A stretch of DNA of 64,000 nt. Origin: a virus (lineage: Duplodnaviria; Heunggongvirae; Uroviricota; Caudoviricetes). A program made the translations under genes and the position numbers. Positions 1,608-54,065 of the stretch are shown here, piece by piece. The stretch lies in the IMG/VR virus record IMGVR_UViG_3300028887_000087; one strand, written 5' to 3'. How positions within the stretch are numbered: position 1 is the first letter of the stretch; each line of letters begins with the position of its first letter. A model generated the notes under the pieces. That model saw only the letters and a program-made list of their open reading frames with translations. It made no database searches and was not told the DNA's origin.

Positions 1608-1937
1608 ATGAGAATAAGAGACATTATTGCTAAAGCATTCTTACAAGTTGAAACAGATTATATTCACCCCGTAGAAGACGGCTTTTATTACGAAGTTCAT
1701 ACTGACATTCTTCGTGATACAAAAACTTGGTGGTATATCAATCCCAAGCTCGAGCTTAATCATAACCTAACTTTAATTTGTACTTTACTTGAGTCCCCGA
1801 TGAAAAGTTTTGACTTATGGTTAGAAGATGAAGGCCGACATATTGAAAATGATACAAAAATACTTGATAACATATTTGTGAATATATCAAATTATGATGA
1901 AGATCCTGAAAAGTGGGTTGTAGGTATACAAGATTAA
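1608..1937 (+). CDS. hypothetical protein, tandem paralog family member 4 (alt. GTG start 1602)
   Basis: Coupled to upstream stop; paralog motifs (KTWWYI, DPEKWVVGI). Confidence 0.5.
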   Translation: MRIRDIIAKAFLQVETDYIHPVEDGFYYEVHTDILRDTKTWWYINPKLELNHNLTLICTLLESPMKSFDLWLEDEGRHIENDTKILDNIFVNISNYDEDPEKWVVGIQD

Positions 1938-1972
1938 ACTTTACCTAAAGTCTTTTTATATTATATTGTAAT
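1934..1972 (+). promoter_or_regulatory. class-1 phage promoter-like bipartite motif (AAACTTT-N12-TTTATATTATATTGTAA)
   Basis: ttaaacttt...tctttttatattatattgtaat immediately upstream of ATG 1973; motif recurs ~10x. Confidence 0.5.
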
Positions 1973-2308
1973 ATGGCAGTTATAACAATAAATGAAGCGA
2001 TGAAACGACCGACTCAAGTTCGTACATCGGACATTTCAAAAATCTCTGCAGAAGTTAATAATGCAAAAGATGTTCACGAAGTATGTGTTGCACTTGCAAG
2101 ATATGTTCGTGATAACCCAGATGAATACGCAAGAGAGCTTCTTGTTCGTGTTCGATATTGTAAAACTTTAGAAGCTGCACAATCTATGTTTTATACTTTC
2201 CTCTTATCTGTTGAAGGACAAGGCGTTCTTAGAGAATACGAAACAAAATATGTAAGACATAAAGGCTCAGCAATTGGCGGAATGGAATGTCATTCGCCTA
2301 GGAGTTGA
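1973..2308 (+). CDS. hypothetical protein (111 aa)
   Basis: ORF directly after class-1 motif. Confidence 0.55.
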   Translation: MAVITINEAMKRPTQVRTSDISKISAEVNNAKDVHEVCVALARYVRDNPDEYARELLVRVRYCKTLEAAQSMFYTFLLSVEGQGVLREYETKYVRHKGSAIGGMECHSPRS

Positions 2309-2310
2309 TT

Positions 2311-2766
2311 ATGTTTTTCAAAAAGCGTAAAAGAAACCTTGACTTATATATTCAAAAGCCTGAAACACCCAAAAGAAAAAGATATAAATATGTTGAGCCT
2401 TATTATGTTGTCAAATGTAATAACGGCTATCTTGCACTTGAAGTAAAACGCTATTACAATAAAGCAAAATATTTCCGCGCCTATTGTGAAGAAGTTCAAA
2501 TCAAACATAGAAAGAACGCTGCAGGTGAATGGGAAAGTTATGCTTATTGCAACAACTATTGGGTTGTAAAAAGAAAAAGCAAAGAGTCTGCTGAAAAGCA
2601 GGTTGAAAAAGCATTGAATAATTTTGGTAAGACAAGAATTCCTGATAGGTTTTTAGGCGCAAAGCTTGTGCTTATTGATGTACCTTGGAATGAGTATATC
2701 AAAAAAGAATATAAAGAAGCAGTGGAGGCAGACCAAATTGAAAGAAGAAGGATGTATAATTATTGA
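2311..2766 (+). CDS. hypothetical basic (K/R-rich) protein
   Basis: ATG 2311 with TAGGAG RBS; TTG alt start 2305. Confidence 0.5.
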   Translation: MFFKKRKRNLDLYIQKPETPKRKRYKYVEPYYVVKCNNGYLALEVKRYYNKAKYFRAYCEEVQIKHRKNAAGEWESYAYCNNYWVVKRKSKESAEKQVEKALNNFGKTRIPDRFLGAKLVLIDVPWNEYIKKEYKEAVEADQIERRRMYNY

Positions 2767-3724
2767 TGGAAAAGAATTCAAAAAGTCAGTGTATAAGTAT
2801 TATACACTCGAACAGTATGAAGCAATTAAAGACACATTGAAACATACTTATGTCGAAGATATTAAAAGAGACGTTGAAGGAAAGTTCCGTGTAAGTAATT
2901 GTGATTGCTATTGGGATGCTCCTGCTGAAGTTATTGGTAAAGCTGTTTTCGATTGGTATGCTCCGCTTCCAAGAAATGTTCGTGAAGCAATTGATGCTCT
3001 TGAAAAAGAACCTTGTGAAGAGAACGCTGCTATGTTCCTTGCTGCATTGAAAATTGCTTTAAGAAGCCCAGACAACAATTTATCTGAATACGAGTACCCA
3101 GCTCTTATGATACGCGGACACGAAAACTCTTGGGGCACGGACAGCGCTTGGGCAAAGATTGAACTTTGGAAAAAAGATGATAAGATAGGATTTGCACCAG
3201 TAGCAAAACACGGCCCAGGCAGTTATCACGACACCCACGATCTTCTTATGTATACAGACGAAGAAACAAGAAGTAATTGTTTTGAAATTATCAAACTTGC
3301 ATTACGAAATTCAATGGACCGCGTAAATAGCTGGGAAGTTATGTGCGGCAACTCAGAACATACGTTCTCACACGGCAGTTATGCGCCATCTGAAAAGTCT
3401 TACAAAAGTTTTTGCAAAACTTTTATGAAGATTGACCCAATTGAAATGTTGAATACTTATGAGTTTTATTATAATAAAACTCAGAAAGGTTATAACCCTT
3501 GGCGCAATTGTCATACCTGTAAAGAAGAGACCAAGCATAAAAAGATTCAGGCAAAATCGAAAAAAGAAGCCTATGAAATATTCAAAGAATGGGTTAAAGA
3601 AGAAAATGAACATTACAGCAATATGTGGTTCCCAGGGACTGAAGGAAATCCACACCTAAAAGCATTACCTATGTCAGATGGTCGTTTAACTTTCAAACCT
3701 AAGAAAGGTGAAGTATATTGTTAG
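2678..3724 (+). CDS. hypothetical protein (~349 aa); start uncertain, overlaps upstream gene by ~80-100 nt in +1 frame
   Basis: Long ORF; in-frame starts TTG 2666/ATG 2678/ATG 2690; no RBS evident. Confidence 0.45.
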   Translation: MYLGMSISKKNIKKQWRQTKLKEEGCIIIDGKEFKKSVYKYYTLEQYEAIKDTLKHTYVEDIKRDVEGKFRVSNCDCYWDAPAEVIGKAVFDWYAPLPRNVREAIDALEKEPCEENAAMFLAALKIALRSPDNNLSEYEYPALMIRGHENSWGTDSAWAKIELWKKDDKIGFAPVAKHGPGSYHDTHDLLMYTDEETRSNCFEIIKLALRNSMDRVNSWEVMCGNSEHTFSHGSYAPSEKSYKSFCKTFMKIDPIEMLNTYEFYYNKTQKGYNPWRNCHTCKEETKHKKIQAKSKKEAYEIFKEWVKEENEHYSNMWFPGTEGNPHLKALPMSDGRLTFKPKKGEVYC

Positions 3725-4074: not shown

Positions 4075-4080
4075 AAAATT

Positions 4081-5086: not shown

Positions 5087-5457
5087 TGAGAGACTATACA
5101 GAAGTAGCAAATAAATATGCAAAAGATACAGGAAGAACTGAGCCTGATTGGTTGAGAAAACAAGTAGTTCAAGATTTTACTGCAGGTGCCAATTTTGCAG
5201 ATAAAGCAAATGAAATGACTGGTTTGAAGGAGCAGACTTTTGCAATCGTATCTTCAAGAAACAATAAATTACTTTTCTGGGGCGGTTCAACAAAGCCCAA
5301 GTTTGACAGCTTTACTTCTGTAAAACTTTACAAAACTGAAACTCTTGCAAACAAAACGCTCGAAGACCGAAAAAGACGAATGGTTGACCCACTTTGGCGA
5401 ACAGCCTATGTTATGGAACTTAAAGTCGAATTCGGCAAAATTTGCACATCTAATTAA
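5086..5457 (+). CDS. hypothetical protein (123 aa)
   Basis: ATGA-type coupling with upstream gene. Confidence 0.5.
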   Translation: MRDYTEVANKYAKDTGRTEPDWLRKQVVQDFTAGANFADKANEMTGLKEQTFAIVSSRNNKLLFWGGSTKPKFDSFTSVKLYKTETLANKTLEDRKRRMVDPLWRTAYVMELKVEFGKICTSN

Positions 5458-5492
5458 ACTTTCTCTCCGTCCTCTTTATATTATTATTGTAA
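5452..5492 (+). promoter_or_regulatory. class-1 phage promoter-like bipartite motif
   Basis: attaaacttt...cctctttatattattattgtaa followed by AAAGGAGGA RBS and ATG 5509. Confidence 0.55.
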
Positions 5493-5508: not shown

Positions 5509-5832
5509 ATGGCAACTGAAAACATTGATATTATTCTTGACAAACTTCAGTCTCGTCTTGACGTTTTGAAGGCAAATAAGAAAAATTTACAGTATTTTGA
5601 AGATCACGGCGACGGCGGTTTTTGGCGTGATCTTACTGAAGAAAAGGCAGCACAGTTTGCAAACGATGACTGGGACCTTTGCGACTTTCAGGTAGGCGAA
5701 TTGTTCTTCCTTGTTGCAACTCCTGATGGAATTAAGATTGTTTCAGAAACTGAAAAGGCTTTGCTTCCTCAGTTCAATGTTTTGTATCAGGGTTCAAAGC
5801 AGGCTTGCAAAAACTTTATAAAGGTGGACTAA
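5509..5832 (+). CDS. hypothetical acidic protein (107 aa)
   Basis: Strong RBS; class-1 motif upstream. Confidence 0.6.
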   Translation: MATENIDIILDKLQSRLDVLKANKKNLQYFEDHGDGGFWRDLTEEKAAQFANDDWDLCDFQVGELFFLVATPDGIKIVSETEKALLPQFNVLYQGSKQACKNFIKVD

Positions 5833-10238: not shown

Positions 10239-10268
10239 GGCGGGCTTCGGTCCGCCGTTAATATTTTA
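10239..10268 (+). terminator. Rho-independent terminator-like hairpin (GGCGGGC-TTCG-GTCCGCC)
   Basis: 7-bp GC stem, TTCG tetraloop, T-rich tail interrupted by TTAATAT box. Confidence 0.45.
10257..10264 (+). promoter_or_regulatory. class-2 TTAATAT box (with SD-containing leader to ATG 10283)
   Basis: gttaatattttaaatggaggttcactATG. Confidence 0.35.
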
Positions 10269-11678: not shown

Positions 11679-13175
11679 ATGGCAGAAGAGTTTCTTAAAA
11701 AAGTATATGACCGCTACTTGGGTTCTGATTATGAATTCGGTGATTCTGACTTAAACCCAAAAAGAGAAATTTCAAAAACTAATCTTGAAGAGTTGGAGCT
11801 TGAAGAAGATGCAATTATGGAAAAAATTGCAAATCGTCTTCGTGAGCTTCACGCAATGGCGACATCTCTGCCAAAGTACAAAGTTCCTGAAAAGATTGAT
11901 AACGATGACTTCAAGACAGAGTCTTCAGGTGCAGGTTTAGGACCTGACCCAAACCCAGAAGTAAATGCAAACGAACTCGCAATGAAATTGAGTTTGGGTG
12001 GTGACCCAACTGATACTCACTTATTGCTCCCAGGCGGTGGACTTGATTCTCAGGTTGACTTCTTGGTAGGCGAACTTGAAAACATTCTTATAAACGTTCT
12101 TGCAGTTTCTCCTCCTGAGCCTGGGCCTGGGCCATTCCCTGGGGGTGGTGGTGACTTAACACAATTATACAACCCTGGGTGTGATGACTTCGATGACGAT
12201 GGCAATGAAGAGTTTGAAGACCAAAGTAATCTTCTCGACGATTTGAAAAAAGGTATCAACGCATCTCTTAATTCCGATGGAAACGGAGATGACGACAGTG
12301 GCAACGAAGATGATGACGGTGGCAGTGGCGGTGGAGAAGCAAAAAAGAAAAGTGCTGCTGAAGCTGCTGACGATTCTGCAGGTGAAAATAACGCAAATAG
12401 AGACGCTGCCGCTGCTGAAAGAGAAAAAGAAGTTGTTGAATGTATTGCAAAAGAACTTCCTATTCTTTCGGCTATTCTTGCAATCTTAAAAGTTGTAAAT
12501 GTTCTTAAGAAAGTTCTTCTCTTAATTCTCACAATTGTTGTTCCTATTGTAAAGATGATTACTTTTGCTGCTCAGTGTTGGATTAACCCTCCTGCTGCAG
12601 GACAAGTTATTCAAATGGTAGCAGAAAAAATTGCAGCTTTACTTATTTCAGCAATCGGTGAAATTTTGCAAATGCTTTGGAATATGTTGGAACTTGATTG
12701 TAAGACAGAACAAGTACAGTCAGTACTTGACCAAATAAATGAAGTTCTTTCAGGTATTTCAAGTTCAATCAGTTCAACAAAGTCTGCTGCTATCAGTTTT
12801 GCAAATCAAGGTAAAGCTTTGGCAAATGAACTTGCTGATGCGTTTAGTAAAGACAAGTTTGAGCAAGGTGCTGAAAACTGGAAAAATGCAGTTAAGTCTT
12901 GGGCTGAAGAAGATTCTTGGAATCAGGGTAAAGAAGCATTCAATCAACAACTTTTTGGTGGAGAAGGCTTCTCAGGCGCAGGACTTGAAAATCTTATGTC
13001 GAAAGCTCTCCCACAAGATATTAAGAGTAAACTTAATAATGTTATCAACAGTACTAAACAAGTGGTTGATAATACAAAGAACGCAGTTAAAGAAGTTGAT
13101 ACTGAAGATAAGACAGGTGTTCAGCAGAAACTTAACGACCTTGCTTCATTCTTAGGTCCTTTCAGCGTAAAATAA
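11679..13175 (+). CDS. acidic low-complexity (D/G/P-rich) protein with central hydrophobic TM helices; possible internal virion/ejection protein
   Basis: PEPGPGPFPGGGGD, DGNGDDDSGNEDDDGGSGGG then ILSAILAILKVVNVLKKVLLLILTIVVPIV. Confidence 0.55.
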   Translation: MAEEFLKKVYDRYLGSDYEFGDSDLNPKREISKTNLEELELEEDAIMEKIANRLRELHAMATSLPKYKVPEKIDNDDFKTESSGAGLGPDPNPEVNANELAMKLSLGGDPTDTHLLLPGGGLDSQVDFLVGELENILINVLAVSPPEPGPGPFPGGGGDLTQLYNPGCDDFDDDGNEEFEDQSNLLDDLKKGINASLNSDGNGDDDSGNEDDDGGSGGGEAKKKSAAEAADDSAGENNANRDAAAAEREKEVVECIAKELPILSAILAILKVVNVLKKVLLLILTIVVPIVKMITFAAQCWINPPAAGQVIQMVAEKIAALLISAIGEILQMLWNMLELDCKTEQVQSVLDQINEVLSGISSSISSTKSAAISFANQGKALANELADAFSKDKFEQGAENWKNAVKSWAEEDSWNQGKEAFNQQLFGGEGFSGAGLENLMSKALPQDIKSKLNNVINSTKQVVDNTKNAVKEVDTEDKTGVQQKLNDLASFLGPFSVK

Positions 13176-19845: not shown

Positions 19846-20084
19846 AATTAGTTTTTAAGGACGTTAAAGGCGACGAAGAAAGAATGCTTTTTATTATCAT
19901 CGTTGATGACGATGGTTTTGAAGTTGCAAAATATCCTATATATTTGACAAAAGAAGCTTCAGAAAAGTTGCCTGTCCTTCAGGAAACATTTACAAAAATC
20001 AAAGACATTTTCGAACTTGTTTATAATTCAGGAAAAAAGAAGGAAGACCTTGAATTTGTACTCGAAAGTGTTAATATAAATTAA
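19842..20084 (+). CDS. hypothetical protein (80 aa)
   Basis: ATGA coupling; AAGGAG RBS. Confidence 0.45.
   Translation: MKLVFKDVKGDEERMLFIIIVDDDGFEVAKYPIYLTKEASEKLPVLQETFTKIKDIFELVYNSGKKKEDLEFVLESVNIN
20070..20077 (+). promoter_or_regulatory. class-2 TTAATAT box adjacent to class-1 motif
   Basis: gttaatataaattaaacttg. Confidence 0.3.
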
Positions 20085-20115
20085 ACTTGTCGGAATTTCC
20101 TTTTATATTATTATT
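20081..20115 (+). promoter_or_regulatory. class-1 phage promoter-like bipartite motif
   Basis: ttaaacttg-N12-ttttatattattattgg. Confidence 0.45.
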
Positions 20116-20155
20116 GGGTAAATGGGAGGAAATCAGAAGACACGGAGGCAGCAAA

Positions 20156-28897: not shown

Positions 28898-28940
28898 AAT
28901 TAAACTTTACAGTCGACTTCTTTATATTATATTTGACGTA
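28898..28940 (+). promoter_or_regulatory. class-1 phage promoter-like bipartite motif
   Basis: aattaaacttt-N12-tttatattatatttgacgtaAGGAGGatgttATG. Confidence 0.55.
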
Positions 28941-28951: not shown

Positions 28952-29266
28952 ATGATTTACGTTGCAGAAGTTAAAACAGCAGCAGGTGTTTATTTCAGAT
29001 TTTACGAAACAACAAAATTGACGAAAAGAACAGAAACAGTTCAGGCAGTCGGTGTAAAGCCTTATAGTAAAATTTCCTCAACAGAGTTTGAAGTTCAGCC
29101 CGATTTGAATAATCACTACGGACCTGAGTTCCGTGTTCAGAAAAACGGTGCAGGACTTTATATTGAAGGCAACGGCAAAAAAGGTCTTCAGAGAACTTAT
29201 CTGACTGAAGGCTACAACGCAAACAAAAAATATATAAATATTTTCGACAAATCTAAACTTCAGTAA
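28952..29266 (+). CDS. hypothetical protein (104 aa)
   Basis: AGGAGG RBS, class-1 motif upstream. Confidence 0.55.
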   Translation: MIYVAEVKTAAGVYFRFYETTKLTKRTETVQAVGVKPYSKISSTEFEVQPDLNNHYGPEFRVQKNGAGLYIEGNGKKGLQRTYLTEGYNANKKYINIFDKSKLQ

Positions 29267-29292
29267 GTTGATCTTTATATTATTATTGTCAG
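29253..29292 (+). promoter_or_regulatory. class-1 phage promoter-like bipartite motif
   Basis: ctaaacttc-N12-tttatattattattgtcag then AAAGGAGGA. Confidence 0.5.
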
Positions 29293-32855: not shown

Positions 32856-32879
32856 GGCGGGTTTCGGCCCGCCTTTTTT
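32856..32879 (+). terminator. Rho-independent terminator (GGCGGG-TTTCGG-CCCGCC + T6), A6 upstream
   Basis: GC stem-loop followed by TTTTTT. Confidence 0.8.
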
Positions 32880-34642: not shown

Positions 34643-35091
34643 ATGTAAGCTATGTTAAAGGTGATATCTTTACTCAGATTGGTTATGAGTTTGTCTTTGC
34701 ACTCGACTCAACTTTCAAATGTGATGTTGGCATTTGCAAACAGTTTGATGACAAATACGGAATTGAGTCAACTTTGAAAGCAATTCCTGTTGAAGCATCA
34801 AAGTGGCGCGGCAATGGTTATTGTATATCTTTTGAAAAGGGCGGAGAAAAGTTTCACGCCTTGGTTGTAAAAGCTTTACCTCAGCAAATCCCAGAGTACG
34901 TTAATATTGCTAAGGCGCTTGCAACTCTTGCTTCTGAAATTAGAGAAAGCGGTTCTGTTATTACAAGAAAGTTGGCTTTTCCACATATTTGCTGCGGCAG
35001 CTACGACAAAAGAGATTGGGACAAAATTGAAGACATTATAAAAGATGCTTTCAAGGATGTTGATGTAGAACTTTTATTTATCGAAAATTAA
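34639..35091 (+). CDS. macro-domain (ADP-ribose binding/processing) protein
   Basis: VKGDIFTQ...EFVFALDSTF...GICKQFDDKYG and KLAFPHICCGSYD match macro GDIT/AIVNAAN/IAFPAISTG pattern. Confidence 0.6.
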   Translation: MNVSYVKGDIFTQIGYEFVFALDSTFKCDVGICKQFDDKYGIESTLKAIPVEASKWRGNGYCISFEKGGEKFHALVVKALPQQIPEYVNIAKALATLASEIRESGSVITRKLAFPHICCGSYDKRDWDKIEDIIKDAFKDVDVELLFIEN

Positions 35092-35127
35092 ACTTTCCAA
35101 AAGTCCTCTTTATATTATATTTGTAAG
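35087..35127 (+). promoter_or_regulatory. class-1 phage promoter-like bipartite motif
   Basis: attaaacttt-N12-tttatattatatttgtaag then AAGGAGGA. Confidence 0.55.
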
Positions 35128-37888: not shown

Positions 37889-37893
37889 CTAAA

Positions 37894-38898
37894 ATGACAG
37901 AGAGGTTAAACAAGTACCTAGCATTTTCCACTTGCGGGGCAGGTATGTTGGCAAACACAATTGGGCTCATCTCAAGGCTGAATTATTTTGACGGCGGTCT
38001 TCTTTATTTTGTAAACATCGCATCTACAGCTTTTTCACTTTTTTGTATTATTGCCTTGGGAGCAATCTTTTTTAGGAGAAAAGAGTATACAAAGTACATA
38101 AGCGCAATCGTTATAATTACCGCAGCAGTAAATTTTCCGATAACTTTTTTGACAAATCAAAGTAATATATTTATGTTCTATCTTCCTATGATGGGAACAG
38201 CAATAGGTTTGCTTTCAATTGAAAATTGGAAAAAGTCAGTTGTTTGGGGTTCGATTGTTTTAGCAGAAGATACAGCAATGATTTTCTTGAAACATTACCT
38301 TGGTTTGTATAATGATTGGTGGGCATCACATTGGATAAATTGTTTCGGAGCAATTATTTCAACTTTCTTATTCTCTGCAATTGTTGTATCACTTACACTT
38401 AAAGCTTTCAGAGATACAAACAAAAGATTGAGTAAAGAAGCTGAACACGACCAACTTACAACAGTTTACAACAGATACAAAATGGACCAAGATATTAAGT
38501 CAAAACTTTATAAGTATGCTGCTATGATTGATATTGACTGGTTCAAAAAAGTTAACGATACTTATGGACACAAAGCAGGTGATAGAGCTTTGCAGCAATT
38601 AAGTCAATCGTTATTAAGATATGTGACAGATGACTTCCGTGTATATCGTTACGGTGGAGAAGAGTTTTTGATACTTTGCCGCAGCGATGAAAAAGATTTT
38701 CTTGAAAGACTTGATATGATTTGGGAAGACCTTGAACTTACATTCTGTTTAAGACAAGGCGAAAAATTGAGTGTTTCAATAGGCGCAGCTTTTTCAGACA
38801 AATCTCATAGGCTTATCAACTTAGCAGACGAAAATCTTTATAAAGCAAAAAATAACGGTCGTCATCAAGTTTGGTACAACAATAATAAACTTTACTAA
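37894..38898 (+). CDS. membrane-anchored GGDEF-domain diguanylate cyclase
   Basis: ~6 N-terminal TM helices; FKKVNDTYGHKAGDRAL; YRYGGEEF; LYKAKNNGRHQV. Confidence 0.8.
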   Translation: MTERLNKYLAFSTCGAGMLANTIGLISRLNYFDGGLLYFVNIASTAFSLFCIIALGAIFFRRKEYTKYISAIVIITAAVNFPITFLTNQSNIFMFYLPMMGTAIGLLSIENWKKSVVWGSIVLAEDTAMIFLKHYLGLYNDWWASHWINCFGAIISTFLFSAIVVSLTLKAFRDTNKRLSKEAEHDQLTTVYNRYKMDQDIKSKLYKYAAMIDIDWFKKVNDTYGHKAGDRALQQLSQSLLRYVTDDFRVYRYGGEEFLILCRSDEKDFLERLDMIWEDLELTFCLRQGEKLSVSIGAAFSDKSHRLINLADENLYKAKNNGRHQVWYNNNKLY

Positions 38899-38923
38899 AA
38901 TCCTCTTTATATTATTGTTGTAA
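38885..38923 (+). promoter_or_regulatory. class-1 phage promoter-like bipartite motif
   Basis: aataaacttt-N12-tttatattattgttgtaAGGAGGattatctATG. Confidence 0.5.
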
Positions 38924-40421: not shown

Positions 40422-40453
40422 CTGTCTCCTGCTTCGGTGGGAGACAGCTTTTA
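40422..40453 (+). terminator. Rho-independent terminator (CTGTCTCC-loop-GGAGACAG + TTTT)
   Basis: 8-bp stem with TTCGG-containing loop, T-rich tail. Confidence 0.65.
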
Positions 40454-40456: not shown

Positions 40457-40819
40457 ATGAATATCAGAATACTTGGAACACAAATTTTAGAATCTCTTGG
40501 GTTTAAATATGAAAAAGAGTTTGTAAACTTTACCCAACATCGAACAGGCCACGGTATGATATTTTGGGAAAAAGATCATCGGTGGGTTTTTAGTGTAAGT
40601 GACTTTGGGGCTTTACAGGGTCCTAAGAATAATATTCAAAGGTTTTATTGCTGTTGTAAGTTAGACAGCGGTGAAGATGAAATGGGCTTTATAGGACATT
40701 ATGAAATCGCATATAACAGAACGCTTAATTGGAATTGTAAATTGCTTTCTATGTATGAGATTGATGTTGATGTTGCAAAGCATATGATATTAGCAGCAAA
40801 TGATGCAGCAAAGGGGTAG
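40457..40819 (+). CDS. hypothetical protein (120 aa)
   Basis: ORF. Confidence 0.45.
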   Translation: MNIRILGTQILESLGFKYEKEFVNFTQHRTGHGMIFWEKDHRWVFSVSDFGALQGPKNNIQRFYCCCKLDSGEDEMGFIGHYEIAYNRTLNWNCKLLSMYEIDVDVAKHMILAANDAAKG

Positions 40820-40820
40820 T

Positions 40821-41195
40821 ATGTATATAAATACACGCAATGCAATAATAGGTGATATAGCAGTTCCTGCACTTGATGAACTCGGTTTCGGAGAAACAAC
40901 TCCTGAGATTATTTCAACAAGCGGACACGAGGAAGGGTATGGCGCTCAGATTGTTTTAAGACTGCACACAGGAACTCCTAATGTATCTTGGCTTTGTTAT
41001 ATTGAAACAGACTTTTTAAATTTAGCTTTTCAACCTACAAAGTTGACAATGTATTGCGTTCTTACTGAACAACACGGTATGACATTTAAGGTGCTCGATA
41101 AAGCTGCTTACACAGTTTATGCAAAAGATATGAAGTTTGAAAAAGCTGAGGAGCAGAATCCTGAAATTGCAGCAAAGCTGTTTACGTTAAAGTGA
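40821..41195 (+). CDS. hypothetical protein (~124 aa)
   Basis: ATG 40821 after AAGGGG. Confidence 0.45.
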   Translation: MYINTRNAIIGDIAVPALDELGFGETTPEIISTSGHEEGYGAQIVLRLHTGTPNVSWLCYIETDFLNLAFQPTKLTMYCVLTEQHGMTFKVLDKAAYTVYAKDMKFEKAEEQNPEIAAKLFTLK

Positions 41196-41503
41196 TGTGG
41201 AATAGAAAAGACGCAAAGATGTACTTAACACAAGTTCTCGGTGCAATCGAATGGGATAACCTTGAGGTTGACAAAAAGAACTTTGATTACAGTGCATATT
41301 CATATTATATAACTGCTCGCTTATTGACTGACCAACCCAATATGTATTGGCTTTGTCAGGTGACAACTGTTCAAGCTGCAGGGGAAGTAATTGAAATAAA
41401 TGCGGACTTAACATTGAAGATTGATAGGAAGATAAAAGATAAAGTGTCTTATACAATTTATATTGATAAAGAAGGCGGCGTTGATAGGATAGTACAAAGA
41501 TGA
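41195..41503 (+). CDS. hypothetical protein (~102 aa)
   Basis: coupled ORF. Confidence 0.45.
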   Translation: MWNRKDAKMYLTQVLGAIEWDNLEVDKKNFDYSAYSYYITARLLTDQPNMYWLCQVTTVQAAGEVIEINADLTLKIDRKIKDKVSYTIYIDKEGGVDRIVQR

Positions 41504-43052: not shown

Positions 43053-43094
43053 ATTAAACTTTTTGCTTGACTTCTTTATATTATATTTGTAAAA
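43053..43094 (+). promoter_or_regulatory. class-1 phage promoter-like bipartite motif
   Basis: attaaacttt-N12-tttatattatatttgtaaaa then AAAGGAGGA. Confidence 0.55.
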
Positions 43095-43112: not shown

Positions 43113-43583
43113 ATGGATAAACTTGAAGCTATCAAAAAGGAATATGGCCCAGCAGTTGAACTTGATGAGTCATTCAACCCACCACGTTTTACAGTTGACG
43201 GAGAAGTTTTTTCAATCCGCGACGATGACGAACTCGAAGCTGATGCAAAAGAAAATGCAAAGGAAATCTTCGAAGAGTCAACTGACGAAGCCAATTCTGA
43301 ATGGGTAAAAAAGTGGGGCGGAATTTCTGAGTTCTACGATGAAGTTTGGGTAAACGATTTCCGTATCGAAGACAGCGAAACTTTCGGAGACCTCTCTGAT
43401 GAAGAGATTCTTGACAAGCTCGAAAATGAATACTGTTATTTTGAAGACGGCTATCCTCGTGCTGCACTTGACTTTGACAAAATGGCAGACTTTGTTTATG
43501 ACTATGACGGTGCTGTAGGTCTTTCAAGATACGACGGCAATATTAAATACGTTTACGGTTTCCACGTAATCAGGGAGGAATAG
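43113..43583 (+). CDS. hypothetical acidic protein (156 aa)
   Basis: AAAGGAGGA RBS. Confidence 0.55.
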   Translation: MDKLEAIKKEYGPAVELDESFNPPRFTVDGEVFSIRDDDELEADAKENAKEIFEESTDEANSEWVKKWGGISEFYDEVWVNDFRIEDSETFGDLSDEEILDKLENEYCYFEDGYPRAALDFDKMADFVYDYDGAVGLSRYDGNIKYVYGFHVIREE

Positions 43584-44609: not shown

Positions 44610-45194
44610 ATGAAAGAGTTTTTTGTTAGTGACTTACATATAGGACACGAAAACTGTTTAAGATTTGACAACCGTCCTTTTAAGGACCTTGCAGAACAGA
44701 ATGAAAAAATGGTTGAAATTTGGAACAAAAGAGTAAAGCCTGAAGACCACGTTTGGATGCTTGGTGATATTCTTTGGTTTGCAAATAAAGAAAATGAAGA
44801 TGTACTTAAATCTCTCAACGGCAAAAAGTATCTCGTCACAGGCAATCACGATGGACGAATGCTTAAAGTCGGACATATCAAAAATCTTTTTGAAGAAATC
44901 CACGAAGGCTATCATAAGCTTCACGACAGCAAAGGTCGTACACTTATTCTTTCACATTACCCAATTATTCAGTTTGACGGCGTAATGCGTGGAAACATCC
45001 ATCTTTACGGACACATCCACGTTAACCCAAAAGATAACGCTTTTATTGAAAAGTGGAAGAAAGAATACGAAAAAGAAATGACAGGACAGGCTGGCAATTC
45101 ATTCAAAGTGAATATGTATAATGTAGGTTTTGCTGTTCCTTATATGGAATGGGGGCCAAAAACATTAGATGAAATATTGGAGGCAAACAAATGA
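44610..45194 (+). CDS. calcineurin-like metallophosphoesterase
   Basis: SDLHIGH, WMLGDI, VTGNHD, SHYP, GHIH motifs. Confidence 0.75.
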   Translation: MKEFFVSDLHIGHENCLRFDNRPFKDLAEQNEKMVEIWNKRVKPEDHVWMLGDILWFANKENEDVLKSLNGKKYLVTGNHDGRMLKVGHIKNLFEEIHEGYHKLHDSKGRTLILSHYPIIQFDGVMRGNIHLYGHIHVNPKDNAFIEKWKKEYEKEMTGQAGNSFKVNMYNVGFAVPYMEWGPKTLDEILEANK

Positions 45195-45700
45195 AACACT
45201 TTATCGTAATTGATATGCAGAATGATTTCTGCACAGGCGCTTTGAAAAACGATGCCGCTGTTGCAATTATACCACGCATTAAAGCGGAATTGCAGGCAGC
45301 AAAGGCAGACAGCGCAAACATCATCTTTACTCGTGATACACACTTTGACGGTTATCTTGAAACAGGTGAAGGTAAGCATCTCCCAGTAAAGCACTGTCTT
45401 CAGAATACAGAAGGCTGGGAAATTGTTCCTGAACTTAAAGAAGAGATTGATGACAAAACTACAGTCATTGACAAGCTTCACTTTGGCTACGACAACTGGG
45501 GCAATTACATCAAGCCTAACGATGAAATTACAATCGTAGGAACTTGTACTGACATCTGTGTTGTAAGCAACGCCCTTGCTCTCAAAATGATTGAAGGTGT
45601 TGAAGTAAAAGTAATTGCTGATTGCTGCGCAGGCCTTACTCCTGAAAGCAACGAAGCTGCATTGACAACAATGAAAATGTGTCAGTGCGAAATTGTATAA
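45191..45700 (+). CDS. pncA: nicotinamidase / isochorismatase-family cysteine hydrolase (PncA-like)
   Basis: VIDMQNDFCTGA, FTRDTHFDG, KHC, IVGTCTDICV, VIADCCAG match PncA catalytic D/K/C and metal-site motifs. Confidence 0.8.
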   Translation: MKHFIVIDMQNDFCTGALKNDAAVAIIPRIKAELQAAKADSANIIFTRDTHFDGYLETGEGKHLPVKHCLQNTEGWEIVPELKEEIDDKTTVIDKLHFGYDNWGNYIKPNDEITIVGTCTDICVVSNALALKMIEGVEVKVIADCCAGLTPESNEAALTTMKMCQCEIV

Positions 45701-46362: not shown

Positions 46363-46461
46363 AAAACTTCATAAAGTTTATCAAGGTATCTCTTATATTG
46401 ATTTACCTTAAAATTACAAATGCAATTGACAGATGGAAGAGAAACAGACAGGAGAAGAAAA

Positions 46462-47265
46462 ATGACTAGTTTTGATACTTTTACAAATGAAGAAAGAATG
46501 AAGGACATTCACGATAAGATTATCGTTTGGATTAAGAACTTTTTTAATGACAAGAAAGGTCCTGCAGTAATTGGTATCAGCGGCGGAAAAGATTCAACAA
46601 TCTGTGCTGCTCTTCTTACTGAAGCACTTGGCAAAGACCGTGTAATTGGTGTAATGATGCCAAACGGTGAGCAGAAGGACATCTCTGACTCAAAGAAAGT
46701 TATCAGCACTCTTGGTATTCGTGAAATTGAAATCAACATCAATGGAATGTACAAAGACATCACATCAAGAATTGGTGATTGGTACGAAGGTGATGAAATA
46801 CCAAGTCTTTTCACAACAAACACTCCTGCCCGTCTTCGTATGGTGACTCTTTACGGAATTGCTGCAGTTTACGGCGGACTTGTTTGCAACACTTGTAATA
46901 AGTCTGAAGATTATGTTGGCTACAGTACAAAATACGGCGACGCTGCAGGTGACTTCTCACTTCTCAATCGTTTGACAAAAACTGAAGTTGTTGCACTTGG
47001 CGATTATATGAAATTGCCAAATGAACTTGTACACAAAATACCTTCAGATGGTATGTGCGGCAAGAGTGATGAAGACAATATGGGCTTTACCTATGAAGCA
47101 CTTGATACATTTATCTTGACAGGACTTCCTCCAAAGTCTGAGGAAGTTTTCAGAAAGATTGTCACAATGCATCACAATCCTAACACAAAATACAAACTTA
47201 TTGATATGCCTTCTGCTCTTGAAGAATTCATCCCTGATGCTTTCGACAGAGTAGCAGAATGTTAA
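46462..47265 (+). CDS. nadE: NH3-dependent NAD+ synthetase (PP-loop ATP pyrophosphatase)
   Basis: PP-loop VIGISGGKDST; ATG 46462 after AGGAG RBS. Confidence 0.8.
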   Translation: MTSFDTFTNEERMKDIHDKIIVWIKNFFNDKKGPAVIGISGGKDSTICAALLTEALGKDRVIGVMMPNGEQKDISDSKKVISTLGIREIEININGMYKDITSRIGDWYEGDEIPSLFTTNTPARLRMVTLYGIAAVYGGLVCNTCNKSEDYVGYSTKYGDAAGDFSLLNRLTKTEVVALGDYMKLPNELVHKIPSDGMCGKSDEDNMGFTYEALDTFILTGLPPKSEEVFRKIVTMHHNPNTKYKLIDMPSALEEFIPDAFDRVAEC

Positions 47266-49995: not shown

Positions 49996-51078
49996 ATGAG
50001 TATTGATGTTGTAATTGGCGCAAATTATGGAGATGAAGGCAAAGGCCTCACAGTTGCTCGTATTGCAAAGCAGTATGACCCAAGACAAACTTTTGTTATT
50101 ATGGGTAATGGCGGTGCGCAAAGAGGACACTCTGTAATACACGATGGAAAACAACATATCTTCAAACATTTCAATTCTGCAACTCCATTAGGTGTTCGAA
50201 CATTCTTCAGCCCAGACTTTATTCTTGACCCTATTCAGTTCAATGTTGAAAAAGAGGAACTTAAAAAAGTTTACGGTATTGAGCCTATAGCAATTCGTTC
50301 TGCATCTTGTAAGTGGGTGACACCTTGGGACATAATGGCAAATCAAATGTTGCAAAAAGAAAATTGGACAGGCTCTTGCGGTATGGGTATCTGGGAAACT
50401 GTACTTCGTTATCGTAACGGCGTGTATATGGACTTTGATAGTTTTGCTGCTCGTCCACACGATGAACAAGTTGAGTTTCTCAAAAAGATTCGCGACTATT
50501 ACGAAGGTGTAAGAAAGATCAAAGTCAACCCAAAATACCGAACACCTTGGTATTCTGATATTCTTATTGAGCATTTCATAAGAGACTTTATGTCAATGTT
50601 TGAATGTTGCAAAGTTAGCCCATCATTCTTAAACTTGGCTTCAAAACTCCAGTCACAACATTTTATTATCGAAAATGGACAAGGACTTCTTTTAGGCGAT
50701 AAAGGATTTGATGATAAGGAAGCAACACCTTCAAATACAGGACTCCCATCATACATCGACTTGAAAGATGCAAATGTTCATTTCGTAACACGACCTTATA
50801 TTACTCGTCACGGCTCTGATACTTTTGTTGGCCACAAACTTGATTGTGACCTTAATAAGTCAACTGAAATCAATCAGTACAACGAATGGCAGCACGACTT
50901 CTTTTACGATTACCTTGACTTGGCTGATTTGAAAAAGAGATGCGATGAAGAAGTCGCAATGCATCATATCAAAAGATATACAGTCGAAGTCACTCATTGT
51001 GATGAACTTGACCGTGAAGTTGAGTTCAAAAATATTTTTCACGGAAATTGTAATTTTTACGATTCAAATAAACTTTAA
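49996..51078 (+). CDS. adenylosuccinate synthetase (PurA)-family protein, divergent (PurZ-like candidate)
   Basis: P-loop GANYGDEGKG; NGGAQRGHS (cf. GGHNAGHT); GSCGMGIWETVLRY (cf. GTTGRGIGPAY); ENGQGLLLGD (cf. EGAQGTLLD); KLD motif. Confidence 0.7.
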   Translation: MSIDVVIGANYGDEGKGLTVARIAKQYDPRQTFVIMGNGGAQRGHSVIHDGKQHIFKHFNSATPLGVRTFFSPDFILDPIQFNVEKEELKKVYGIEPIAIRSASCKWVTPWDIMANQMLQKENWTGSCGMGIWETVLRYRNGVYMDFDSFAARPHDEQVEFLKKIRDYYEGVRKIKVNPKYRTPWYSDILIEHFIRDFMSMFECCKVSPSFLNLASKLQSQHFIIENGQGLLLGDKGFDDKEATPSNTGLPSYIDLKDANVHFVTRPYITRHGSDTFVGHKLDCDLNKSTEINQYNEWQHDFFYDYLDLADLKKRCDEEVAMHHIKRYTVEVTHCDELDREVEFKNIFHGNCNFYDSNKL

Positions 51079-51104
51079 TCAAAACCCTTTTATATTATAA
51101 ACAA
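51067..51104 (+). promoter_or_regulatory. class-1 phage promoter-like bipartite motif
   Basis: aataaacttt-N12-tttatattataaacaaATG. Confidence 0.45.
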
Positions 51105-51701
51105 ATGGAATATATAGACTATAACGTAAGAGACGCCTTTAAAACAAAGGCAACTGAAAACGGCAGAAGCACTGATTACATCAATTTATATATGCTCATA
51201 TATGAATTCAGCGATGACCGCCACGGCTACGATTGGGACAAAAGAGAAAAGTACTTTAACGACCTTCAGGATTTCGTAAAACATTTTGAAGGCGAAGGTA
51301 TTGTAGGCAGTCAAAGTGATTTAAGGGATTGGGACTTTGAAAGTCAGCAACCTTTTTATCAAAAAGGTGATATTGAGTGCGTCAGCATAATGGCTCCCGA
51401 AGATGACTTCTTTGTAAGAAACCTTCTTGATGCATTAAATCCTCTCGATTATGCAATTGAATACAGAAAAATGGCTCCTCGCAAAATTACAAAATTGCCA
51501 AAAGACGCATACGGAACTGAAGTCGAGATTGGCGATATTGTTGTTTGGGAAGGCGCTGCACACAGAGTTAAAAGTATCATTTCCGAAATAACGATAAACA
51601 AGAAAAGAATGTTTACCCGTGATTGTGTTGTTGTAAGAACAAATAACCCAAACAAGAAACTTGGCTGGGTTGAATATATTGATAACGGCAGAAAAGAATA
51701 A
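51105..51701 (+). CDS. hypothetical protein (198 aa)
   Basis: ORF after class-1 motif. Confidence 0.5.
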   Translation: MEYIDYNVRDAFKTKATENGRSTDYINLYMLIYEFSDDRHGYDWDKREKYFNDLQDFVKHFEGEGIVGSQSDLRDWDFESQQPFYQKGDIECVSIMAPEDDFFVRNLLDALNPLDYAIEYRKMAPRKITKLPKDAYGTEVEIGDIVVWEGAAHRVKSIISEITINKKRMFTRDCVVVRTNNPNKKLGWVEYIDNGRKE

Positions 51702-51717
51702 TTGGAGGTTCACTTAT

Positions 51718-53025
51718 ATGTGGTTAATCAATGGTAAATTGACTGATGATGAAAATGTCGTAATGGTGGCTTTTGACTTGAAATACCCGCCTATGGTAAA
51801 ATCACCGCTTGATACTGACCAGTACAAAAAGTCTATGAAACAGACTTATCTGCATCAGTTTAGCGATGCCCACGCAACTTGGGATTTCAAAGCCCGCAAT
51901 GTTGGTGATGGAACAAAACACGAAAAGTATACGGAAGAAGACCGTATTGAAATTAAGAAACAGATTATGGCTTACTGTGCTCTTGTTTACACAGAAGCAG
52001 AACTTGCCTTCCTTGGTGACCCAGTAAAACGTCCTTGGATTCATAACAACTTCATTGAAGTTGAACGCGATTGGCGTCCTCATCTTGAAGACTTTGAAGT
52101 TCTTGAAGATGAAAAGACAGGCCTTGCAATTCACACAAAAGGCGTTCAGTGGAAAATTTCTGATTACGAAATTCCTGTTCTTGAAATTGCTGCAGAAACA
52201 TATTACCGCAATCACTACGATTACGAACAGCTTGTAAAAGACTTCAAGGAAAAAACACTTGAAAAGATTGATTATATCAAGCGCGGCATTTTCCGCCCAG
52301 GTGCTTTCTCTGAGTTTGGTGCTCGTCGTCGTGTAAGTTTTGAACTTCAGGATTGGTTGGTAAAGACTCTTGTTGAAGCTGCAAAGGACCCAGACTTTGC
52401 AAAAAATGCAAAGTTTGTCGGAACTTCAAATATGTTCCTTGCTATGAAGTATGGAATTATGTCAGTAGGTACAATGGCTCACGAGTTTATTATGACTGTG
52501 GGACAGGGTTATCTCAAACACAATCCTGCATTCAGCAATTGGTACGCTCTTGATGCTTGGGTAAAAGAATACGGTACAATGAACGGTATCGCTCTTACAG
52601 ATACAATCGGAACTGATGTGTTCCTCCGCGACTTCAAGAAAACATTTGCAACAGTGTTCAGCGGCGTTCGTCACGACAGTGGTGACCCATACGCTTGGGG
52701 TGATAAAATCATTGCACATTACAAGAGCTTGGGTATTGACCCTATGACAAAAACTTTGATGTTCAGTGATGGTTTGAACTTGAAGAAAGCAACAGAACTT
52801 AACGAATACTTCAAAGGTAAAGCTCAGGTTGCGTTCGGTATCGGAACAGACTGGAGCGGTCCTCAGGGAATTGATGCTTTGAACATCGTATGTAAGGTTG
52901 CAATTGTAAACGGCCTTGATGTTGCAAAACTCAGTGATGCTGAAGGCAAGAATATGTGCCGCAATCCTGCAGCAATCGAACATCTTAAGAATGAGATTGC
53001 TTGGAGAATGGCAACTGACAAATAA
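51718..53025 (+). CDS. nicotinate (or nicotinamide) phosphoribosyltransferase, NAPRT/NAMPT family (PncB-like)
   Basis: FGARRRVS, GTSNMFLA, VGTMAHEF, VRHDSGDP, VAFGIGT family motifs; GGAGG RBS before ATG 51718. Confidence 0.7.
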   Translation: MWLINGKLTDDENVVMVAFDLKYPPMVKSPLDTDQYKKSMKQTYLHQFSDAHATWDFKARNVGDGTKHEKYTEEDRIEIKKQIMAYCALVYTEAELAFLGDPVKRPWIHNNFIEVERDWRPHLEDFEVLEDEKTGLAIHTKGVQWKISDYEIPVLEIAAETYYRNHYDYEQLVKDFKEKTLEKIDYIKRGIFRPGAFSEFGARRRVSFELQDWLVKTLVEAAKDPDFAKNAKFVGTSNMFLAMKYGIMSVGTMAHEFIMTVGQGYLKHNPAFSNWYALDAWVKEYGTMNGIALTDTIGTDVFLRDFKKTFATVFSGVRHDSGDPYAWGDKIIAHYKSLGIDPMTKTLMFSDGLNLKKATELNEYFKGKAQVAFGIGTDWSGPQGIDALNIVCKVAIVNGLDVAKLSDAEGKNMCRNPAAIEHLKNEIAWRMATDK

Positions 53026-53050
53026 AATAATTGGGAGCTTCGGCTCCCAA
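53024..53050 (+). terminator. GC hairpin TTGGGAGC-TTCG-GCTCCCAA overlapping next gene's RBS (attenuator/terminator-like)
   Basis: 8-bp stem, TTCG loop, followed by GGAGTTTTT. Confidence 0.35.
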
Positions 53051-53061
53051 GGAGTTTTTAA

Positions 53062-53748
53062 ATGTTTAAGAAAGAAAAGAAATATGTTGCACTTATCAGA
53101 GAAGCAACAAGTTTTGGTCCTGAAGGCCTCAACAACGAAGAAAGAATTGTAAGAGAATGGGAAATGGACGACTATGATGATGCAATCAATTATGTAAACA
53201 TAAACGGCTTTGGAGTTCAGAATTATCACAATATGTCAGTCCCATATTACCGCCTTGATGTTATTACTGAAAGAGTTGAAAAGGGCAGGGTAAAGAGAGA
53301 ATACGACCATCGTATTCGTAACTTTTCACTCAGAGAAGATACAATCGAAAAGTACAAACTTGCAAGAGTTGATGAGTGGTGTCAGAATAACAATGCTTGG
53401 ATTGCTTACAGAATGCTTTGGGACTTGAAACAGGAAGTTCCTGCTATTGAATGTCGTATGCCTAACGATACTCACTATTACACTGATTTTGAAAAACTCA
53501 AAGCTATGTACGAAGCTGTAAAGAAAGAGCAGCAGCCTTTTGCAATCAAAGGAACTGATTGGCCTTATTGGTTTAAGGTTGCAGGACAGCTTATTCCATC
53601 AACAACATCAAATTGGTTTAAGCATCTTCTTATCAAATACAACTATGTTGCAGAAGCTTCTCTTGAGCCTTACACAGGTGAAGACAAGTATGAAGAACAT
53701 ACAACCAAAAACGCAAGCGGTGTTTCCGTTTGTAGGAGTATAAGCTAA
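53062..53748 (+). CDS. hypothetical protein (228 aa)
   Basis: GGAG RBS. Confidence 0.5.
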   Translation: MFKKEKKYVALIREATSFGPEGLNNEERIVREWEMDDYDDAINYVNINGFGVQNYHNMSVPYYRLDVITERVEKGRVKREYDHRIRNFSLREDTIEKYKLARVDEWCQNNNAWIAYRMLWDLKQEVPAIECRMPNDTHYYTDFEKLKAMYEAVKKEQQPFAIKGTDWPYWFKVAGQLIPSTTSNWFKHLLIKYNYVAEASLEPYTGEDKYEEHTTKNASGVSVCRSIS

Positions 53749-54047
53749 TGCCAGCTGACAATAAACTTGAACATAAAACCGGCGAATATTATGCTTCTTT
53801 GGCAGAAAAAGACAGAGCTGAATTTCATAAACGCATTGAAAACTCTGACCTGCCAAAGGACAAAAAGATTGAATACATCGCCGTTTTTGATAAGGGTTTT
53901 GACTTAGGCTTTGCTTGTGCCAAACAGTATTGTGATAAGGATTTGCAAAACTTGACTGCAGAACTGACTTCAATGACAAAAGAAGAGTTTGACAGTTATG
54001 TAAAACTTCACAAACTTTTGACAGAAACTGAACTTTTACATCCTTAA
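53748..54047 (+). CDS. hypothetical protein (99 aa)
   Basis: TAATG coupling. Confidence 0.45.
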   Translation: MPADNKLEHKTGEYYASLAEKDRAEFHKRIENSDLPKDKKIEYIAVFDKGFDLGFACAKQYCDKDLQNLTAELTSMTKEEFDSYVKLHKLLTETELLHP

Positions 54048-54065
54048 CTTTATATTATTTTTGTA
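54030..54065 (+). promoter_or_regulatory. class-1 phage promoter-like motif (variant)
   Basis: gaactttt-N12-tttatattatttttgtATG. Confidence 0.4.

Follow-up and report, generated by a model that had tools for sequence, protein, structure and literature searches.

A recurrent bipartite element with the layout of a sigma-dependent promoter in a family of jumbo phages

The 64,000-nt stretch of the Caudoviricetes record IMGVR_UViG_3300028887_000087 analysed here (the window) has a G+C content of 35-41%, with nearly all genes on the plus strand and strong AAAGGAGG Shine-Dalgarno (SD) sequences, and it contains ten copies of a bipartite element, referred to as class A, each composed of an AAACTTT-type box, a 12-nt spacer and the 10-mer TTTATATTAT, which is invariant in 10/10 copies (Table 1). 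All ten are on the plus strand. A search of the window with the pattern AAACTTT-N12-TTTATA, allowing at most one mismatch, returned 12 matches against 0.70 expected from dinucleotide-preserving shuffles (n=100), none of which reached 12. Ten of these matches are the sites that a sequence-only reading of the window had proposed as bipartite copies, and the gap of exactly 12 nt that it had described was present in every one of them; the remaining two matches, at 39546 (+) and 49930 (-), are without the full TTTATATTAT and look like chance matches. A scan with a weight matrix, as suggested in the same reading, set the ten copies apart, their own scores being 37-56 and the next-best position in 128 kb (both strands) scoring 10.7. 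Because of this gap in score, class A is a discrete class and not the upper end of a continuum.

The positions given in that reading pointed to the right sites but mark the (A)TT preceding each box instead of the box itself, and three boxes (at 20083, 29255 and 54030), not only the one at 54030, deviate from AAACTTT. Its tail ATTTGTAA holds as the consensus (T/A)(A/T)TTGTAA but is absent at 51070, where AAACAAAT is found. Similarly, an ATG with a near-perfect SD 15-25 nt downstream was confirmed for about seven of the ten copies, but not for those at 1936, 51070 and 54030. On the upstream side, the stop codon of the preceding gene mostly falls within the ATTAAAC box or the spacer, and the elements thus overlap 3′ gene ends and do not occupy free intergenic DNA.

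Near relatives of the window were absent from 50,697 phage records (megablast), and the PHROGs matched almost nothing. Motif scanning of IMG/VR revealed a family of contigs with many copies, including a 188,745-bp contig (75-92% identity), a 61.5-kb contig (98%) and more distant relatives. In 185,579 species genomes, the strict motif gave nine matches in JAZNWZ010000130.1 (306,108 bp; loci L123 and L125-L132), a contig that shares 92-95% identity with parts of the window. It is deposited in a 'Candidatus Fimenecus' (Clostridia) metagenome-assembled genome (MAG), most likely through wrong binning of a nearly complete phage genome. The sole other strict match, in a Lachnospiraceae MAG, is due to chance, as it runs antisense within a bacterial gene. 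Since strict matches were confined to these two, the class A motif is specific to the phage family, and a host promoter of bacterial genomes was rejected as its identity. Homologs of a flagellin gene of the family were found on contigs of 301-306 kb, which identifies this as a jumbo-phage family.

Conservation was followed in a family set of about 0.55 Mb, i.e. the window and 0.49 Mb of the relatives' loci (L numbers), with 56 distinct class A sites. When the search was anchored on the 8-mer TATATTAT only and the upstream box was left unforced, RAACTY occurred exactly 21 nt upstream in 56 of 95 distinct TATATTAT words, and any other spacing at most twice; four further TATATTAT sites had the variant ATACTTT. 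TATTAT was present in 10/10 window copies and 56/56 family sites. Columns outside the search pattern were conserved as well (numbering relative to the start placed below), namely the TT preceding AAAC (45/56 and 56/56), the T after CTT at -29 (49/56), the TC at -18/-17 directly before TTTATATTAT (45/56 and 41/56), TTGTAA at -4 to +2 (46-51 of 56 sites), and an A-rich tract at about -47 to -39. The spacer is fixed in length and free in sequence, apart from a pyrimidine-rich 3′ end closing in TC. At 51/56 sites a co-oriented open reading frame (ORF) starts at most 75 nt downstream, and in relatives with divergent gene modules the motif changes strand together with the genes. The downstream ORFs are mostly small, as proposed earlier (median about 120 aa), but the strong SD-driven translation attributed to them does not hold for the three window copies that lack an SD.

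Orthologous footprints were compared for copy 2 with L004 and L127, and copy 8 is conserved in L034, L060 and L129. Between the window and the 188-kb relative, both boxes are identical, the spacer is of equal length with 5/12 identical positions, and the leader has a 5-nt indel. Identical boxes joined by a drifting spacer of equal length are the footprint expected of a two-box protein-DNA site at fixed distance. A structured RNA element was rejected, as RNAalifold returned no consensus structure (0 pairs) for the ten copies.

The most economical register, and with it the start site, was placed from the distances of start codons. The leaderless-type ATGs lie 6, 6 and 8 nt past TATTAT (51070, 54030 and 1936, respectively), an A is conserved at that position in 47/56 sites, and in an independent motif of the family, GTTAATAT (class B), the ATG is exactly 6 nt past TAATAT at 25 sites. 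We infer from these distances that TATTAT is a -10 element at -12 to -7 and that the conserved A of TTGTAA is +1, which would place the box TT(A/G)AACTTT at -37 to -29 (AAACTTT at -35 to -29) with a 17-bp spacer between AAACTT and the -10. TTTA and TATTAT together would then occupy -16 to -7, and TTGT -4 to -1, followed by A(+1)A. The A-tract at about -47 to -39 would take a UP-like position, that is, the place where a proximal UP-element subsite is expected. The register considered earlier, TTAAAC 17 bp from TATATT, is a possible alternative, but the start would then lie 9 nt downstream.

Discreteness, strand specificity, rigid spacing and co-oriented downstream genes bear out the earlier proposal of one promoter class, and judged from these sequence features the ten elements are very probably promoters. 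It is fairly probable that they form a single, phage-family-specific class with the geometry of promoters for a sigma-dependent bacterial RNA polymerase, and moderately probable that their recognition depends on some specificity factor different from unmodified host sigma-70. In agreement with the sequence-only reading, the upstream box is not a housekeeping -35: AAACTT at 17 bp from TATTAT matches TTGACA in 0/6 positions, TTAAAC at 17 bp from TATATT in 3/6 and without the G, and the box is invariant, hence not a degenerate -35. The TATTAT part is of housekeeping type, with 5/6 positions of TATAAT. For Escherichia coli sigma-E, a group IV or extracytoplasmic function (ECF) sigma factor, the -35 element spans -35 to -29 and reads GGAACTT, in which a T-tract follows an AAC motif (Lane & Darst 2006, PMC1540707); the same order is found at about -35 to -29 in 56/56 class A sites, as (A/G)AACTTT. 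An ECF-type -10 (CGT, GTC or TCTGA-like) is not seen, the TTTATATTAT region being without conserved C/G except for the C at -17. A box as invariant as the -10 argues for specific recognition, and its non-TTGACA sequence at the -35 position, the ECF-like layout and the housekeeping-like -10 together point to a determinant other than unmodified sigma-70. The host core enzyme would read class A through such a determinant, for which a divergent phage sigma-like protein, a sigma-appropriation pair like AsiA/MotA of T4 or, less likely, a host ECF sigma are candidates. Each copy would begin a short transcription unit made up of ORFans or auxiliary genes, and three of the units are apparently leaderless.

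Searches for genes of such factors were negative. Pfam scanning of the window proteins gave no sigma-70-family domain, no match to the beta/beta′ families Rpb1/Rpb2, and no MotA/AsiA-family match at E <= 0.01. In 268 non-window protein clusters of the relatives (66,667 aa), Sigma70_r2, r4, r4_2 and ECF families were absent at E <= 0.01, with the counts staying at the numbers of known sigma sequences added as decoys (6, 6, 5 and 5). Queries with RpoE and the RpoD C-terminus (phmmer) matched none of all the ORFs. E. coli rpoB and rpoC served as decoys in the polymerase scan, and two rpoB and two rpoC decoys were the only sequences with an Rpb1/Rpb2 domain among the 101 largest non-window clusters; a regular-expression search for the catalytic motifs DFDGD and GNKG returned none, and there was no T7-type polymerase among the strong Pfam matches listed. 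The phage-encoded or phage-modified polymerase proposed in the sequence-only reading is thus not borne out by sigma-70-family or beta/beta′ domains in the material scanned. The sampled pan-genome of the relatives amounts to perhaps 60-70% of a genome of about 300 kb, and divergent phage sigmas often escape Pfam.

The class A copies may also insulate their genes from upstream transcription, since the preceding gene has its 3′ end within the element and, in relatives, an upstream terminator hairpin has the box as its loop. In L135 this hairpin reads GGACGGAA-TTAAAC-TTCCGTCC-TTTTTGCTTTATATTAT, with the T-run leading to the -10 region, and similar hairpins with the box in the loop were found in L045, L123, L072 and L003; the window has only short box/spacer palindromes (1936, 29255 and 35090). 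About one third of the copies could in addition act as a translational gate, with the SD masked in read-through RNA and free in promoter-initiated RNA. In four window copies, complementarity was seen between the 3′-terminal part of the spacer and the SD with the bases following it (Table 1). A test of the longest complement was uninformative, since A/T words dominate, and duplex energies with permutation were used instead: in 31 non-redundant sites, the duplex energy was -7.06 kcal/mol for a spacer and its own SD region, and -6.05 kcal/mol when the two came from different sites (permutation p = 0.0027). A partly compensatory change was seen between orthologs of the window and L004, from GTCCTC/GAGGAC to GTTTTC/GAGAAC. 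Because the pairing arm lies upstream of the deduced start, masking would occur only in read-through RNA. Control by a promoter inside a hairpin is found in the T4 genes e, soc, 49 and I-TevI, in which read-through RNA is silent and RNA from the internal promoter is active. There, as in class A, sequence upstream of the internal promoter pairs with the ribosome-binding site; unlike in T4, masking in class A is deduced from complementarity alone and concerns a subset of copies.

Copies of class A also lie at sites of gene gain and loss. The 188-kb relative (L044) is missing window positions 28807-29273, which comprise a conserved hub element (described below), the promoter at 28902, the 104-aa gene and the box of the copy at 29255, and at the 29255 locus it retains merely a decayed -10 remnant behind a terminator. 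The same relative has an additional promoter copy with a small gene inserted before the gene of the CCA-adding enzyme. The copies, as stretches of about 45 bp of near-identity, mark breakpoints of gene-cassette gain and loss between relatives.

Parts of this organisation are shared with known promoter systems. In T4 middle promoters, a MotA box (a/t)(a/t)(a/t)TGCTTtA centred at -30 lies 11-13 bp from a sigma-70 -10, and the sigma is appropriated by AsiA/MotA. Class A shares with them a -10 of housekeeping type that is paired, at constant spacing, with a conserved box peculiar to the phage in place of the -35, and both are found upstream of many small non-structural genes. The class A box, TTRAACTTT at -37 to -29, differs from that of MotA and is 16 bp from TATTAT or 14 bp from TATATT, and the likeness in mechanism is an analogy only. 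ECF promoters (sigma-E, GGAACTT-N16-TCTGA) likewise have a purine-AAC plus T-tract -35 that is longer than the 6-bp housekeeping element, but in class A the upstream G is mostly A or T, the -10 is TATTAT and not CGT- or TCTGA-like, and the sampled phage sequences yielded no ECF sigma gene.

The early promoters of the Bacillus jumbo phage AR9, which are read by its virion RNA polymerase, are AAATATATATTAT-(6N)-G+1 (PMC5312081). These phiKZ-related promoters have in common with class A the identical TATATTAT, the 6 nt to the start deduced here, near-invariance and a jumbo-phage setting; they are without a -35 upstream box, start at G where class A would start at A, and belong to a phage with split beta/beta′-like genes, which were not detected in the incompletely sampled genomes of the present family. 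The promoter-early stem-loop (PeSL) cassettes of T4-type phages (Arbiol et al. 2010, PMC2839356) likewise consist of a strong promoter that recurs, with an AT-rich tract upstream, in ORFan-rich regions. Recombination between their copies gives mini-circles. Their stem-loops or terminators may overlap the -35 box or sit between the boxes, and their copies flank single-gene cassettes present in one phage and absent in a close relative; class A copies, too, flank ORFan cassettes that differ between close relatives. PeSLs, however, are sigma-70-like early promoters read by the host enzyme, whereas the class A box is unrelated to TTGACA, most window copies lack the stem-loop, and phage lineage and host phylum differ. 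A literature search with the motif string returned no relevant description. The class A motif thus appears undescribed, although repeated phage-specific promoters as such are well known; within that kind, class A is set apart as a variant by the hybrid composition of the box, the terminator overlap and the proposed SD masking.

Several points weigh against the explanation favoured here. The proposed factor is without a candidate gene in the window and the 268 clusters; the -10 part does not resemble that of ECF promoters, and 51/56 sites have an A where an ECF -35 usually has its upstream G; the 10-mer TTTATATTAT is more invariant than a usual sigma-70 -10 and forms the core of the AR9 promoter. 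Moreover, initiation and start site are deduced from sequence, the preference of the host sigma-70 is assumed, with the spirochete assignment of the host (see below) resting on auxiliary genes, and the SD-masking signal is modest and limited to a subset of copies. Class A could instead consist of ordinary early promoters of the unmodified host sigma-70 holoenzyme, in which binding relies mostly on the A-tract and the near-consensus -10, and the box (TTAAAC, 17 bp from TATATT, 3/6 TTGACA) is a -35 variant optimised by the phage and tolerated by the host. If a phage has no polymerase of its own, one promoter class or more must be readable by the naive host enzyme, and neither a phage sigma nor an RNA polymerase was found in the window or the relatives' clusters scanned; in addition, the UP-like tract, -35 position, 17-bp spacer and -10 give a layout like that of T4 early promoters and PeSLs, also before ORFans and flanking indels (PMC2839356), and small downstream ORFans are typical of early genes. 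Even so, this explanation is unlikely, as the box is invariant like the -10, yet without the G of TTG and the rest of TTGACA (0/6 in the register of the leaderless ATGs), the strict motif is not repeated in any bacterial chromosome of the species genomes searched, and GTTAATAT, a TGnTAATAT-like extended -10 without a -35, is a simpler candidate for unaided host sigma-70. Sigma-70 consensus promoters were not enriched at 20-40 kb (58 vs 52 +/- 8). A phage-encoded RNA polymerase not dependent on sigma-70, e.g. a virion-delivered multisubunit or giant single-chain enzyme of phiKZ/AR9-like or crAss-like type, would recognise TTTATATTAT-N6-start as the core element, with the upstream box as an extra contact. 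The family genomes are jumbo-sized (about 300 kb), the AR9 promoter has the same TATATTAT word at the same distance from the start, and the AR9 virion enzyme tolerates almost no deviation (PMC5312081), which fits the 56/56 invariance observed here; several very large ORFs without detectable homologs, e.g. the 1970-aa protein at 13202-19114, are encoded as well. This second explanation is nevertheless distinctly improbable in view of the decoy-controlled absence of Rpb1/Rpb2 matches, the missing DFDGD/GNKG motifs and T7-type polymerase in the searches above, and the combination of a -35-position box with a fixed 17-bp spacer, which is a signature of sigma dependence and has no counterpart in AR9 early promoters.

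The remaining explanations fare worse. That class A copies bound cassette indels and in certain cases overlap terminator hairpins could suggest a recombination linker or mobile repeat (PeSL-like, or resembling miniature inverted-repeat transposable elements), an element for transcript termination or processing, or a site bound by a protein with no part in transcription. However, no transposase accompanies the copies, and terminal inverted repeats and target duplications are lacking; orientation with the downstream gene and distance to the start codon are strict, two conserved boxes with a free spacer of fixed length have the geometry of a protein-DNA site and not of a recombination core, and there is neither a consensus RNA structure nor a hairpin in most window copies, so that a non-promoter role is very unlikely. 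An archaeal TATA box (TTTATATA-like) with an upstream transcription factor B recognition element (BRE), in a virus of a rumen methanogen, was suggested by rumen- or gut-like metagenome identifiers and by the resemblance of TTTATATT to the box A consensus of methanogens. It is effectively refuted by spacing: an archaeal start lies about 25 nt past the TATA box, whereas here the SD or ATG follows after 8-26 nt, so that the transcript would lack the SD and even the start codon. The window terminators are, moreover, of the bacterial intrinsic type, and the auxiliary genes (FlaB-type flagellin, FlaA sheath protein) are bacterial. A Bacteroidota promoter (-33 TTTG / -7 TAnnTTTG) was also rejected, since TAnnTTTG fits 4/10 copies and the upstream element is CTTT, not TTTG; the strong AAAGGAGG SDs and the auxiliary genes pointing to spirochetes speak against it likewise.

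Two further promoter-like motifs accompany class A. Class B, GTTAATAT, has 15 window sites, all on the plus strand, against 3.1 expected. Seven of them have an ATG 6 or 8 nt downstream without an SD (leaderless type), three come after intrinsic terminators, and one (20070-20077) is located 13 nt upstream of class A copy 3. Family-wide, 111 distinct GTTAATAT sites showed no conserved -35, the ATG was very often exactly 6 nt downstream, and a T frequently preceded the motif, giving TGnTAATAT as in an extended -10. Class C, ACTAAWTWWW, is not enriched in number (9 window matches vs 7.1 expected), and all nine matches are directly upstream of co-oriented genes, including the sole clear minus-strand gene and the largest ORFs (498, 1970, 690 and 957 aa). 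In the family, 94/95 sites were outside long ORFs, often with the ATG at offset 11, and the motif resembles the T4 late promoter TATAAATA in 6/8 positions. In the simplest reading, ACTAAWTWWW is a candidate late class of a three-class programme. Class A is more likely early or middle than late, because it precedes ORFans and auxiliary genes, while ACTAAWTWWW precedes the largest, structural-looking genes; from the earlier label of middle/late, late is therefore probably wrong, and middle (or early) fits better.

Table 1. Coordinates of class A copies, other motifs and selected features in the window and, where an L number is given, in loci of relatives.
Feature	Coordinates	Strand	Details
Class A copy 1	1934..1972	+	box start 1936; TTAAACTTT box, 12-nt spacer, TTTATATTAT
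Target gene of copy 1	1973-2308		111 aa; ATG 8 nt past TATTAT, no SD, leaderless type
Class A copy 2	5454..5492	+	box start 5456; precedes gene 5509-5832 (107 aa), SD AAAGGAGGA
Class A copy 3	20081..20119	+	box start 20083, AAACTTG; precedes gene 20156-20386
Class A copy 4	28900..28938	+	box start 28902; precedes gene 28952-29266 (104 aa)
Class A copy 5	29253..29291	+	box start 29255, AAACTTC; precedes gene 29313-29783 (156 aa)
Class A copy 6	35088..35126	+	box start 35090; top motif score; precedes gene 35147-35518 (123 aa)
Class A copy 7	38885..38923	+	box start 38887; precedes CCA-adding tRNA nucleotidyltransferase gene 38936-40417 (493 aa)
Class A copy 8	43054..43092	+	box start 43056; precedes gene 43113-43583 (156 aa)
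Class A copy 9	51068..51106	+	box start 51070; gene 51105-51701 (198 aa), ATG 6 nt past TATTAT, no SD, leaderless type
Class A copy 10	54028..54066	+	box start 54030, GAACTTT
Target ORF of copy 10	54065-54265		66 aa; ATG 6 nt past TATTAT, no SD, leaderless type
Spacer/SD complementarity	copy at 5456		spacer GTCCTC / SD region GAGGAC
Spacer/SD complementarity	copy at 20083		spacer ATTTCCT / downstream AGGAAAT
Spacer/SD complementarity	copy at 35090		spacer AAAGTCCTC / SD GAGGACTTT; 9 bp; -15.2 kcal/mol for the identical L021 copy
Spacer/SD complementarity	copy at 38887		spacer AATCCTC / GAGGATT
Class B, GTTAATAT	4067, 6066, 8664, 10257, 10877, 20070, 21209, 30345, 31087, 32880, 34900, 44581, 47261, 47539, 62485	+
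Class C, ACTAAWTWWW	11667, 13184, 19115, 22857, 26626, 56297, 57117, 60098	+
Class C, ACTAAWTWWW	57059-57050	-
Hub element	28838-28861		core TTATTCCCTCCATTATAGTTCAAA
Hub element	28814-28822		ATAAATTTA
Hub element	28865-28893		adjoining palindrome TTGACA...TGTCAA
Intrinsic terminators	10240-10256, 28772-28806, 32856-32879, 40425-40446, 53033-53048, 56281-56298, 60062-60084, 62459-62484
NAD salvage/synthesis set	45191-45700, 46420-47265, 51661-53025, 54837-55472, 55484-56062		isochorismatase-type nicotinamidase, NadE, NAPRTase, Nudix, NMNAT
PurA-like gene	49996-51078
ThyX gene	33436-34146
Flagellin/FlaA-like genes	L026 2201-3055	-	FlaA-like sheath gene close downstream
Flagellin/FlaA-like genes	L150 6001-6858, 7307-8134		FlaA-like sheath gene close downstream

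The auxiliary genes of the family give the best indication of its host. The flagellin is of FlaB type, with its best solved-structure matches to flagellins of 284-286 aa (up to 358 bits; Bacillus flagellin 226 bits), three of the four best-matching structure entries also hold a 'flagellar filament outer layer protein', and a FlaA (PF04620) gene comes after the flagellin gene. On account of the FlaB-type flagellin with its neighbouring FlaA gene, the host is probably a spirochete, Treponema-like. A Firmicutes host, considered from the strength of the SDs and the MAG bin, was dropped for the same reason. The relatives also encode a eukaryote-type topoisomerase IB, anaerobic NrdD, a Cpn60 chaperonin, RecA, ClpP and an IS200/IS605 TnpB.

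In the window, Pfam matches included a C5 DNA methylase, a DEAD_2 helicase, an SPFH/flotillin protein, ThyX, an AAA ATPase, a GGDEF cyclase and the CCA-adding enzyme, besides the genes for nicotinamide adenine dinucleotide (NAD) metabolism and the PurA-like gene in Table 1; scans for tRNA genes and Rfam families returned none. The gene for a membrane-anchored GGDEF diguanylate cyclase (37879-38898) adjoins that of the CCA-adding tRNA nucleotidyltransferase, which has an HD domain. The 1970-aa ORF contains a Trp/Tyr-rich stretch, e.g. WHWGWNYWHWGWWEWRW, is without a Pfam, PHROG or PDB sequence match, and probably encodes a virion protein; it is preceded by the gene of a 498-aa Gly/Asp-rich protein with a hydrophobic segment (11679-13175). 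For the 957-aa protein, the PDB sequence search gave nothing useful. Small paralogs occur in tandem arrays at 546-1937 (four of about 117 aa, 22-31% identity) and as pairs at 40800-41500 and 61762-62433.

Upstream of class A copy 4 lie a terminator, the hub element and a TTGACA/TGTCAA palindrome. The hub element is 100% conserved and present in 4-5 copies per genome in the relatives, in both orientations, always intergenic beside class A or B promoters and often between divergent genes; it is often followed by an operator-like palindrome, ATTTTGACA-N11-13-TGTCAAAAT. It gave no RNA-structure signal and is possibly the binding site of a regulator or the promoter of another enzyme, as it contains a T7-like TATAG. 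The intrinsic terminators of the window have G+C-rich stems with UUCG or GNRA-type tetraloops (e.g. GGCGGGCTTCGGTCCGCC), and several are directly followed by GTTAATAT.

A tentative and more far-reaching proposal is that this family of spirochete phages with genomes of about 300 kb, in which neither a sigma factor nor an RNA polymerase is recognisable, has a promoter programme of three classes and that class A is read via a so-far unrecognised phage protein. Such a new sigma-like or sigma-appropriating factor would give the host core/sigma-70 enzyme an ECF-like -35 specificity (RAAC plus T-tract) with the housekeeping-type -10 kept, and would be coupled to SD-masking hairpins so as to restrict translation to RNA started at the promoter. 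Phage-specific promoter motifs in repeated copies are common, and as a putative promoter class, class A is a well-supported annotation rather than a surprise. If the promoter assignment is true, the motif would point to a specificity factor joining an ECF-like -35 with a housekeeping-like -10, which could be searched for in complete genomes, and it would offer compact, portable modules of promoter, terminator and translation gate. With three classes of motif and numerous leaderless starts, the family is also well suited for testing how far temporal programmes can be deduced from sequence alone. For the phages themselves, the class A motif would then provide a ready operon map of an uncultivated jumbo-phage family, probably of gut and rumen spirochetes, for which hardly any phages have been characterised.

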